Below are positions 10,391 through 13,772 of a stretch of DNA of 64,000 nt, piece after piece. The notes under the pieces are model-generated. The model saw only the letters and a program-made list of their open reading frames with translations, ran no database searches and was not told the DNA's origin. Every line of letters begins with the position of its first letter. Positions within the stretch are counted from its first letter, which is position 1. Position numbers and translations under genes: made by a program. The stretch is from Escherichia coli (GTDB lineage: Bacteria; Pseudomonadota; Gammaproteobacteria; Enterobacterales; Enterobacteriaceae): NCBI RefSeq assembly GCF_017348835.2, contig NZ_CP071375.1. One strand, given 5' to 3'.

Positions 10391-11530
10391 TTACCAGTTA
10401 TGAATGTCGCTGGCTGTATCCGTCATGTAACGGACACCGCTAATAGTTGGCAGCAACTGATTGATCAGACGGTTCCAGCGGGAAACCGGGGCGGTGGTGA
10501 CATACACCACGTCATAAGGTTGCAGGCGGAATTCTGTCGCCATCACCAGCGACGTGGCATCGGACATATCCAGCTGGTAGATATTGGCAATCTTGCCGTT
10601 ACGCCCGCCCTCGCCTTTCAGCGGACGAATGACAAAGATGCCGCTGGCGTTGGAGGTGGTCATGTCGATGCCTTCAGCATTGCCCAGGGCTTCGGTCAGG
10701 GTCATGCCGCTAAAGTCCATTTTCAGGGTGCTCTGTTTCTTCACTTCACCCATCACAAATACTTTCAGATCATCATTACGCGGCACGTAGAGAATATCGC
10801 CGGGGTAAAGCAGTCGATTCTGGTTGAGGTCGCCGTTTTGCATCAGCGCCTGCAAAGAAATGCGCTCTTCACGACCATTGTGTGTTAGCACCACGTTGCG
10901 CCAGTCAGCGGTGTCGGTCAGGCCACCTGCGGCGTTGATGGCATCGAGAATGGTCAGTGGTACGTTGGTAATCGCCTGTTGACCGGATTTATTCACCTGG
11001 CCGGAGATATAGGCTTTTTGCGAGCGGAAGGCGGCGATATTAACGTCCACCTGCGGGTCAGCGATGTACGTCGCTAAGCGCCCGGTAATATCACTGCGGA
11101 TTTCAGCGAGCGTTTTCCCGACTACGTGAACCTTGCCGATATACGGGTAAAACATAGTGCCGTCAGGCTGTACCCAGTTGCCGGTGTCGCTGGAGCTGCG
11201 GTACTGACCGGCTGGCGTGGTGAGTTCCGGGTGATCCCAGACGGTGACATTCAGAACGTCCCCCGGCCCGACGCGATACTGGTAATTCGCGATCTCACTT
11301 TCCAGCGTCATATTGGGGCGCGCTACATTCGGGCGTGGGCGTAATTGGTCAATCAGGCGCGGGGTCAGCGGATAAACATTCACCATTTTGTCGAGATCGA
11401 AATCAGCGTCCTGCTGTTTGATGACGTCTTTGCCCATCGTCGACATATTGCTGCCCGGAAGTACTGTGCAACCGCTTATCAAGGTTACTGACACCAATAA
11501 TGGCATCAATTTCATTTTGGATTTCATCAT
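10391..11530 (-). CDS. wza: Outer-membrane polysaccharide export lipoprotein Wza
   Basis: 379-aa ORF with lipoprotein signal peptide (…[11 protein letters not shown]…); first gene of the wza-wzb-wzc-wca operon. Confidence 0.93.
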
Positions 11531-11708
11531 TGTTTATTTATCACTTTGGCAGAGTTATTATCCTGTGCACTATTAATAGCAATGTCGCCATGCACATTTA
11601 CCTTGCAGTTAATTGAATAAAAATTTAACTGGCATCAGTCCTAAAAAAATTGATTTCATCCGCAGGCTATTGACAGAATAATTCAGACTGGTCTTTCAGG
11701 CATCCAGA

Positions 11709-11720
11709 CACGCTACCGCC
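11709..11720 (-). promoter_or_regulatory. ops element (RfaH recruitment site) within the JUMPstart sequence of the wza leader
   Basis: Plus strand reads cacgctaccgcc, whose reverse complement is GGCGGTAGCGTG, the ops consensus; lies in the long untranslated leader upstream of wza. Confidence 0.7.
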
Positions 11721-11933
11721 CCTGGCTTTTTAGCTACCAATACACTGATTTAGCTTAATTTTTCAAACCCTCTCAACATACAGTCGTTGATGAGAAAGGG
11801 TTATTGTGGAAATTAACTTCCGAATATAAGGTGACATTATGGTAATTGAATATTGGCTCTCCAATAATGCAGGAGGAAGTGTTACAGCTAACGGAATAGC
11901 AGGCAAGGTAACAATTCGGCAATTGGCTATTTT

Positions 11934-11947
11934 TAAGAATTATATTA
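11934..11947. promoter_or_regulatory. Candidate RcsAB box upstream of the colanic acid operon promoter
   Basis: TAAGAATTATATTA resembles the remembered RcsAB-box consensus (TaAGaatatTCctA); placement upstream of wza is appropriate; exact site not verified. Confidence 0.3.
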
Positions 11948-12188
11948 AGTGTCATTCAATATAGTTTTTAGGAATTTCTTTAGATTGACAATAATTAATA
12001 TAGCGTCTCCACATGCGATATTTCTTAAATAATATTTTATTATTACCACTTTTAATTCAGGGATAATGCGATGTTCTAGCCCTCAAATAATGTGAGATAA
12101 ATAGTGCTGTGACATTGCATTTTTGCCCTGATTTATCCATGATCGAATTGTGACATTTGTCATACAACGAATAGGTTTTGTACTTACT

Positions 12189-13772
12189 ATGGAATGGATT
12201 GCCGATCCGTCTATCTGGGCCGGGTTAATCACGCTGATTGTGATCGAACTGGTCCTCGGCATTGATAACCTGGTCTTTATTGCCATCCTCGCCGAAAAAC
12301 TACCGCCGAAGCAGCGCGACCGCGCACGGGTTACCGGGCTGCTGCTGGCGATGTTAATGCGCCTGTTACTGCTGGCGTCAATCTCCTGGCTGGTCACCCT
12401 GACTCAACCGCTGTTCAGCTTCCGCTCGTTTACCTTTAGCGCCCGCGACTTAATCATGCTGATTGGTGGTTTCTTCCTGTTGTTCAAAGCCACGATGGAG
12501 CTGAACGAACGGCTGGAAGGGAAAGACAGCAATAATCCCACACAACGCAAAGGTGCGAAGTTCTGGGGCGTGGTGACACAAATTGTGGTACTGGACGCCA
12601 TCTTCTCACTCGACTCAGTGATTACCGCCGTCGGGATGGTCGACCATTTACTGGTCATGATGGCCGCCGTGGTTATCGCTATCAGCCTGATGTTGATGGC
12701 CAGCAAGCCGTTAACGCAATTTGTTAACAGTCACCCGACGATCGTTATTCTCTGCTTAAGCTTCCTGTTGATGATTGGCTTTAGTCTGGTGGCAGAAGGT
12801 TTCGGTTTCGTCATTCCGAAAGGCTACCTGTACGCTGCCATTGGTTTCTCGGTGATGATCGAGGCGCTCAATCAGTTGGCTATCTTTAACCGGCGACGTT
12901 TTCTTTCCGCTAACCAGACGCTGCGCCAGCGGACTACCGAAGCGGTAATGCGCCTGCTTAGCGGGCAAAAAGAGGATGCGGAACTGGACGCCGAAACCGC
13001 GTCCATGCTGGTGGATCATGGTAACCAGCAGATCTTTAATCCGCAGGAACGGCGGATGATTGAGCGGGTACTTAATCTTAACCAGCGTACCGTCAGCAGC
13101 ATTATGACGTCGCGCCACGATATTGAGCATATCGATCTCAACGCGCCGGAAGACGAGATCCGCCAGTTGCTGGAGCGAAATCAGCATACGCGGCTGGTGG
13201 TTACCGACGGTGATGACGCAGAAGATTTGCTCGGTGTTGTTCACGTTATCGACCTGCTACAACAGTCACTGCGCGGCGAACCGCTCAACCTGCGGGTGTT
13301 GATTCGCCAGCCGCTGGTGTTCCCGGAAACCTTGCCATTGTTACCTGCCCTGGAGCAGTTCCGTAATGCCCGCACACACTTTGCTTTTGTGGTGGATGAG
13401 TTTGGTTCAGTGGAAGGGATTGTGACATTAAGTGACGTCACTGAAACCATTGCCGGTAACTTACCGAACGAAGTGGAAGAGATCGACGCCCGCCATGATA
13501 TTCAGAAGAATGCGGACGGATCCTGGACGGCGAATGGTCATATGCCGCTGGAAGATCTGGTGCAATATGTGCCGCTGCCGCTGGATGAAAAACGTGAATA
13601 TCACACCATTGCCGGGCTGTTGATGGAGTATTTGCAGCGTATTCCAAAACCTGGCGAAGAAGTTCAGGTGGGGGATTATTTGCTTAAAACGTTGCAGGTA
13701 GAAAGCCATCGCGTGCAGAAGGTGCAAATTATTCCGCTTCGTAAGGATGGCGAGATGGAGTACGAGGTGTGA
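12189..13772 (+). CDS. yegH: Inner-membrane protein YegH (TerC-family membrane domain plus CBS pair and CorC/HlyC C-terminal domain)
   Basis: ORF track 540 aa; ATG at 12189 gives the 527-aa product [30 protein letters not shown]... Confidence 0.9.

Follow-up and report, generated by a model that had tools for sequence, protein, structure and literature searches.

The wza–yegH intergenic region of Escherichia coli: three conserved Rcs-type boxes, a predicted promoter and a JUMPstart/ops element upstream of the colanic-acid operon

Introduction

Which sequences in the AT-rich DNA between the divergent genes wza and yegH direct transcription of the colanic-acid operon and, in particular, where does the wza transcript begin, which sites are candidates for binding by RcsAB, and how much of the intergenic gap is leader? 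We have taken up these questions for a window of 64,000 nucleotides of Escherichia coli DNA (the whole stretch analyzed, in which positions are counted from its first letter), starting from a preliminary description that treated the entire gap as a long leader of wza and pointed to an ops/JUMPstart element, one possible RcsAB box and a short, probably meaningless reading frame. The region is already well known as the one that controls the colanic-acid (cps/wca) operon of E. coli; the cps promoter, the dependence of this promoter on RcsAB and the JUMPstart/ops element have belonged to textbook knowledge since the 1990s. As a discovery, the present analysis carries little weight; the gains lie in annotation, among them the recognition of three conserved Rcs-type boxes upstream of a predicted core promoter.

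Materials and Methods

A total of 80 wza loci from species-representative Enterobacteriaceae genomes were compared (genera sampled: Citrobacter, Salmonella, Enterobacter, Lelliottia, Kosakonia, Phytobacter, Franconibacter, Atlantibacter, Trabulsiella, Buttiauxella, Cedecea, and others), and an alignment of 76 upstream regions was used as the phylogenetic footprint. All 14-mers on either strand of the gap were scored against the RcsAB box consensus TaAGaatatTCctA, as quoted from Wehland and Bernhard (2000), with a maximum score of 20. Agreement was also counted at the capital-letter positions of the consensus, namely T1, A3, G4, T10, C11, and A14 (the last of which one source prints in lower case). 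The structure-derived RcsB palindrome TN(G/A)GAN4TC(T/C)NA (Huesa et al., 2021) was compared with the same sites. Promoter-like sites were ranked by a composition-corrected sigma-70 position weight matrix (PWM), RNA families were assigned by Rfam, and conserved RNA structure between JUMPstart and the wza ATG was assessed by RNAalifold in 38 diverse sequences.

Results

The wza–yegH gap and its conservation

The wza gene (10391..11530, minus strand) is the first gene of the colanic-acid operon. Because PGAP, in genomes that are identical or nearly so, puts its ATG at 11530 (minus strand) and that of yegH at 12189 (plus strand), the 658-bp gap of 11531–12188 that the preliminary description placed between wza (minus) and yegH (plus) is correct, and all of the sequences quoted in that description were found where it had located them. 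The divergent intergenic region (11531..12188) is AT-rich, with a GC fraction of 0.34 vs. 0.51 for the 64-kb window; local GC ranges from 0.29 to 0.40 along the gap and is ~0.55 in the flanks. No intrinsic terminators were found in the gap. The homologous region of strain CFT073 is bound by H-NS.

Matches to the region were found in 4,839 of 5,426 complete E. coli genomes, with wza and yegH annotated on either side, and 901 bases around the gap are 100% identical to those of E. coli PE164 and F2_81. The intergenic haplotype is rare: only 11 of the 4,839 matching E. coli genomes have an identity of at least 99% over 11400–12300. The K-12 version differs from the window at 25 positions of the gap, none of which falls in ops/JUMPstart, in the predicted -35/-10 or in the sites designated below as boxes B and C; a single difference (11974) lies within box A, which reads TAAAGAAACTCCTA in K-12.

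Conservation of the gap across the 76 aligned loci is patchy. The conserved blocks farther upstream, given in the sense of wza, cover 12027–12014, 11992–11965, 11949–11931, and 11906–11872; these are accompanied by the JUMPstart element and three blocks in the proximal leader, and the segment 11870–11750 shows weak conservation. The promoter, JUMPstart, and ops are missing in three loci of the Pseudescherichia vulneris type (L037, L038, L041).

Three candidate Rcs-type boxes

The single RcsAB box proposed in the preliminary description, at 11934–11947 (box B; TAAGAATTATATTA on the plus strand, or TAATATAATTCTTA followed by AAAA on the sense strand), was recovered by our motif scan with a score of 15/20 in either orientation and 5/6 capital-letter positions, the exception being C11 in the plus-strand reading or G4 in the sense-strand reading. 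Yet it turned out to be one of three conserved candidate boxes, the other two of which score as well or better. Box A (TAAAGAAATTCCTA, then AAAA; 11969..11982, minus strand) has the best score of the gap (16/20, 5/6 capitals), and box C (TAAGAAATATCGCA; 12014..12027, minus strand), with 15/20 and 6/6, is the only 14-mer of the gap that retains every capital-letter position of TaAGaatatTCctA in E. coli. Relative to the transcription start predicted below, boxes B, A, and C are centered at about -70, -105, and -150, respectively, i.e., already box B is upstream of the predicted core promoter, and the wza region can be described as carrying three conserved 14-mers, matching the consensus at 15–16/20, upstream of that promoter.

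A single match at the level of box B is not above chance, with 0.71 expected per shuffled gap. The actual gap contains 4 such matches, distributed over three sites, which is unusual, as 2 of 300 shuffles had at least as many; the three best-scoring sites all fall in blocks that are conserved across genera. Scores of at least 14 were obtained in 74 of the 76 loci for box B, in 70 for box A, and in 36 for box C, and the RcsB palindrome is matched with no more than one mismatch at box B in 69/76 and at box C in 60/76 loci. Within the window, box B departs from this palindrome by one mismatch; box A departs from it by two in most genera, and in some genera it takes the canonical form TGAGGATAATCCTA or TGAGGCTAATCCTA.

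The most strictly maintained portions of boxes A and B are closely alike. In box B, TCTTAAAA is invariant (76/76 loci), and the right half of box A, A(A/T)TCCTAAAA, is nearly so; both boxes have in common a near-invariant right half that runs into an A-tract, A(A/T)TCCTAAAA and A(A/T)TCTTAAAA, which can be summarized as A(A/T)TC(C/T)TAAAA and which resembles the K-12 rcsA site TAAGGATTATCCGAAAA. Because of its conservation, its fit to the palindrome and a 12-mer, TTAATATAATTC, that it has in common with rcsA box1, box B is very probably a genuine Rcs-type box, one of three. The site named in the preliminary description is thus real and near-invariant; its reading as an RcsAB box is plausible but incomplete, given the scores of boxes A (11982→11969) and C (12027→12014).

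A literal text search with the three box sequences, in their window and K-12 versions and on either strand, retrieved no relevant paper, and the literature refers to "the" RcsAB box at wza in the singular. The wza box was reportedly mutated by Wehland and Bernhard in 2000. This usage in the singular would suit a reading by which only box C or only box A is the functional, published RcsAB box and box B is conserved for some other reason, whether as a site for another regulator, as an H-NS or curvature element or as an UP-like A-tract. Box C alone has all of the capital-letter positions in E. coli, box A has the best overall score, and box B contains in most genera a perfect palindrome, TTAATATTAA, that could serve another protein. 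We consider this reading rather doubtful, since box B stays within one mismatch of the RcsB palindrome in the great majority of loci (69/76), its right half with the trailing A-tract recurs in both box A and the rcsA box, and the 12 nt in common with rcsA box1 belong to an operator that is itself a two-box site. We retain the reading of box B as one of three Rcs-type boxes, and modeling of Rcs regulation of wza should consider three conserved boxes, not one.

Predicted promoter and transcription start

Conservation together with the PWM points to a sigma-70 core promoter, TTGCCT-17-(TGT)AACACT (11878..11906, minus strand), with a predicted -35 TTGCCT at 11906→11901, TGn at 11886→11884, and -10 AACACT at 11883→11878. 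This is the top sense-strand match in the window, and the corresponding site is among the top 5 in 74/76 loci. TTGCCT and TGn are invariant and the 17-bp spacer is variable between genera, so that the block 11906–11872 shows conserved hexamers around a changing spacer as is typical of a core promoter; the -10 reads AACAAT in most genera and AACACT, a weak -10, in E. coli. The position of the -10 gives a predicted transcription start at 11868..11871 on the minus strand (~2,137,581–2,137,584 in K-12), which is where cross-genus conservation ends, and the resulting placement of distal boxes at about -70/-105/-150 agrees with the rcsA precedent. From these sequence features we predict that wza transcription starts near 11870; in the CFT073 dataset the wza TSS is given as NA.

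Two other promoter candidates were rejected. The only match reported by the promoter tool, TGGAGA-16-CATAAT (11863→11836), sits where the region is least conserved. The second is a perfect TATAAT present in E. coli at 11944→11939, within box B. If it were the wza -10, transcription would start at ~11932 with a leader of ~400 nt, and box A (center at -43.5) would act as a class-II site for RcsAB or RcsB that overlaps the -35; RcsB homodimer sites usually lie in this position, immediately upstream of the -35. We regard this as improbable: the TATAAT is unconserved and specific to E. coli (a T at 11941 in 73/76 loci gives TATTAA or TATTAT), it comes without a -35, the pair is absent among the top 10 PWM matches, and the invariant part of box B is TCTTAAAA, not a -10 pattern. 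Moreover, a near-identical rcsA sequence, ~170 bp upstream of the rcsA start, has been described as an RcsAB box. The start predicted near 11870 and the alternative one at ~11932 are both upstream of ops, and the circumstance that the preliminary description had named as speaking against it, a start downstream of ops, would therefore not arise in either case.

JUMPstart and ops

The ops element GGCGGTAGCGTG (core GGCGGTAG; 11709..11720, minus strand) is a perfect 12-mer that precedes the wza ATG by 190 nt and follows the predicted promoter (11906→11878), at about +151 from the predicted start. It is on the same strand (minus) as wza and, because the wza sense strand is the non-template strand, in the right orientation for RfaH recruitment. 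No second match to the 12-mer occurs in the 64-kb window, even with one mismatch allowed (chance expectation 0.26), and with up to one mismatch it is found ~190 nt before the wza start in 75/80 loci. This sole match lies inside a JUMPstart element of 39 nt (11709..11747, minus strand), in which a small hairpin, UUGGU/GCCAG, is followed by ops and which matches Rfam family RF01707 well above threshold (57.3 bits vs. a gathering score of 35, E = 2.8e-12, model positions 1–38 of 38).

Published data on strain CFT073 bear directly on this element. In CFT073, an RfaH ChIP signal (published in 2022) was seen at eight leader ops sites, of which the wza ops (GGCGGTAGCGTG, at -190 relative to the first gene) is one. 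The signal was obtained in a dhns dstpA strain; in that background a sigma-70 peak appears upstream of wza, and in the wild type H-NS lies over the wza promoter and the operon is silent. For RfaH control of colanic acid, the same study cites Navasa et al. (2014). Thus, the ops call of the preliminary description named the right element on the right, non-template strand, as the Rfam match, the 75/80 loci and the CFT073 ChIP signal attest, and the RfaH ChIP that it had proposed as a check is already available in print for an identical element. By analogy with CFT073, the wza ops probably remains silent in the absence of induced initiation, the promoter being covered by H-NS.

These data also bear on whether the ops and box matches could be functionless chance likenesses in an AT-rich spacer, for which one might cite the ~0.7 consensus matches of box B level expected per gap of such composition. 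We consider this extremely improbable. It is contradicted by the maintenance of all elements in many genera amid leader sequence that has diverged, and by the RfaH ChIP signal published for the identical site, in addition to the E-value of the JUMPstart match.

Two further observations concern this element. In the sigma-70 matrix scan, JUMPstart (TTGGTA-19-TAGCGT, 11710–11740, minus strand) is among the top five promoter-like sites in 45/76 loci, so the ops region has a -10-like character. A second wza locus of Kosakonia oryziphila (L074) carries a wza paralogue whose JUMPstart includes GGCGGTAGCATA as a variant of ops; the proximal leader blocks described below are also present there.

The wza leader

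The preliminary description of the whole 658-bp gap as leader was inaccurate. The conserved promoter predicts a wza leader of ~340 nt (11870→11531; 11531..11870, minus strand), with JUMPstart at ~+124..+162 from the predicted start, so that roughly half of the gap is leader given a start at ~11870. The Rcs boxes fall outside the leader, in operator DNA upstream of it, and the portion of the gap farthest from wza belongs with yegH.

Within the leader, the alignment reveals three conserved blocks on the minus strand downstream of ops: ATTATTCTGTCAA at 11682–11670, TTTTTAGGACTGATGCCAGTTA at 11626..11647, and CACAGGATAATAACTCTGCCAAAGTGATAAATAAACA at 11531..11568, directly upstream of the wza ATG, where ~40 nt ending at the ATG are conserved. 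Between JUMPstart and the ATG, RNAalifold analysis of the 38 diverse sequences yielded no conserved structure other than the JUMPstart and ops hairpins, of which the former has 5 bp and the latter is small, with one compensatory pair in total; the JUMPstart hairpin is kept almost without compensatory change, and the other leader blocks are conserved in sequence, not in structure, across the 38 sequences. A riboswitch-like fold of the leader found no support in the same analysis and was rejected, as was a leader uORF of 16 codons from the ATG at 11659, which runs through unconserved columns. There were no other credible Rfam matches, two microRNA matches being far below the cut-offs. No obvious Shine-Dalgarno sequence adjoins the wza ATG, which fits a reported habit of RfaH-controlled operons.

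The two proximal blocks (11626–11647 and 11531–11568, minus strand) contain the GGA motifs UUAGGACUGAU and CACAGGAUAAU and are near-invariant across genera; both persist in L037, L038, and L041, the loci without promoter/ops. In Citrobacter amalonaticus (L047), an insertion of ~120 nt (at ~2300–2420 of that locus) between the conserved proximal blocks shifts ops to ~335 nt from the wza ATG; the inserted DNA may represent a small mobile element or a repeat. Another likeness links the leader with the operator: ATTATTGTCAAT (11984–11995, minus strand), just upstream of box A, resembles ATTATTCTGTCAAT (11669–11682, minus strand), in the leader downstream of ops. Both sites are conserved, with TGTCAA invariant at the ATTATTGTCAAT site, and a common factor might recognize the two, or the likeness might be coincidental.

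Judging from their sequence conservation, the leader blocks downstream of ops may constitute a post-transcriptional control site. Tentatively, one could go further and propose that the wza operator is a conserved, rcsA-like array of three boxes (at about -70/-105/-150) and that the leader blocks represent a second, undescribed control acting on wza translation or stability, a combined proposal that we put forward as possible and with some hesitation.

Reading frames and the yegH side of the gap

The 60-codon ORF at 11773..11955 (minus strand), which the preliminary description had considered spurious, is by all sequence indications just that, a chance reading frame. Its ATG is present in 1/76 loci, the length of the frame from the aligned start column varies from 1 to 84 codons among the 76 loci, and no Pfam match was found for it; the ORF lies mostly in the least conserved segment and begins upstream of the predicted transcription start. 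On the plus strand, PGAP annotates in some E. coli genomes a "hypothetical protein" of 49 aa, WP_162829205.1 (1940–2089 in L001), whose equivalent in the window is 11839–11964. This is probably a false gene call, because the frame overlaps the predicted wza promoter, is partly unconserved and has no Pfam match. Neither the 60-codon ORF nor the plus-strand "hypothetical protein" merits gene annotation.

On the opposite side of the gap, a strongly conserved block (12118–12170) just upstream of the yegH ATG contains, at 12149–12164 on the plus strand, the near-palindrome TGTGACATTTGTCATA, which resembles a CRP site (TGTGA-N6-TCACA) and is also a weak Rcs-type match in 30/76 loci.

Discussion

Combining these observations with published data on the colanic-acid operon suggests a likely sequence of events. 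The AT-rich, H-NS-bound DNA upstream of wza would carry conserved Rcs-type boxes, box B among them, to which RcsA-RcsB~P would bind, thereby activating a weak sigma-70 promoter, TTGCCT-17-TGT-AACACT, near 11870. RNA polymerase would meet JUMPstart/ops ~150 nt into a leader of ~340 nt, where the exposed non-template GGCGGTAGCGTG would recruit RfaH. RfaH would then ride with polymerase and suppress Rho- and H-NS/StpA-dependent loss of transcription over an operon of ~20 genes, and it would probably also aid the translation of wza, a gene lacking an obvious Shine-Dalgarno sequence. The RcsAB dependence of the wza promoter, the binding of H-NS and the recruitment of RfaH at the wza ops are taken from the literature; the exact start site, the box or boxes occupied by RcsAB and the translational role of RfaH are what we infer. 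We hold the model as a whole, i.e., Rcs boxes, a weak sigma-70 promoter at ~11870, RfaH loaded at ops and an ORF that arose by chance, with good confidence.

The closest precedent for the proposed operator is the K-12 rcsA gene, which has a two-box RcsAB operator in AT-rich, H-NS-bound DNA, with box1 ~170 bp upstream of the start. The rcsA upstream region contains TAAGGATTATCCGAAAAA and, 33 bp upstream of it, CATTAATATAATTCCGTAA, which overlaps the published box1/YdaT footprint. Wza box B (CTTAATATAATTCTTAAAA) and the rcsA box1 region have the 12-mer TTAATATAATTC in common, the boxes of both genes are situated well upstream of the start in AT-rich DNA bound by H-NS, and their spacing is similar (33 bp for the rcsA pair vs. 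35 bp for the A/B pair of wza). There are differences as well: one box ends in an A-tract in rcsA, whereas both A and B do so in wza; the two types of box occur in the opposite order; and at wza a third box is found another 45 bp upstream.

A second comparison is with group 1 capsule/Klebsiella cps loci, in which an RcsAB box and JUMPstart/ops precede a wza-wzb-wzc export module, as they do at wza. In Klebsiella, the RcsAB box TAAGATTATTCTCA belongs to galF P1 and JUMPstart precedes wzi, i.e., the box and JUMPstart are on separate promoters (P1 and P2), whereas in E. coli both serve a single wza promoter. Finally, the JUMPstart/ops element itself is that of the RfaH-dependent operons at large (Hobbs and Reeves, 1994; RF01707), being carried by rfb, waa, hly, kps, and tra leaders. 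Like those leaders, the one of wza offers a full-length 39-nt match and a perfect ops on the non-template strand, is untranslated and precedes a long polysaccharide operon, and the wza copy shows no difference of substance from the known elements.
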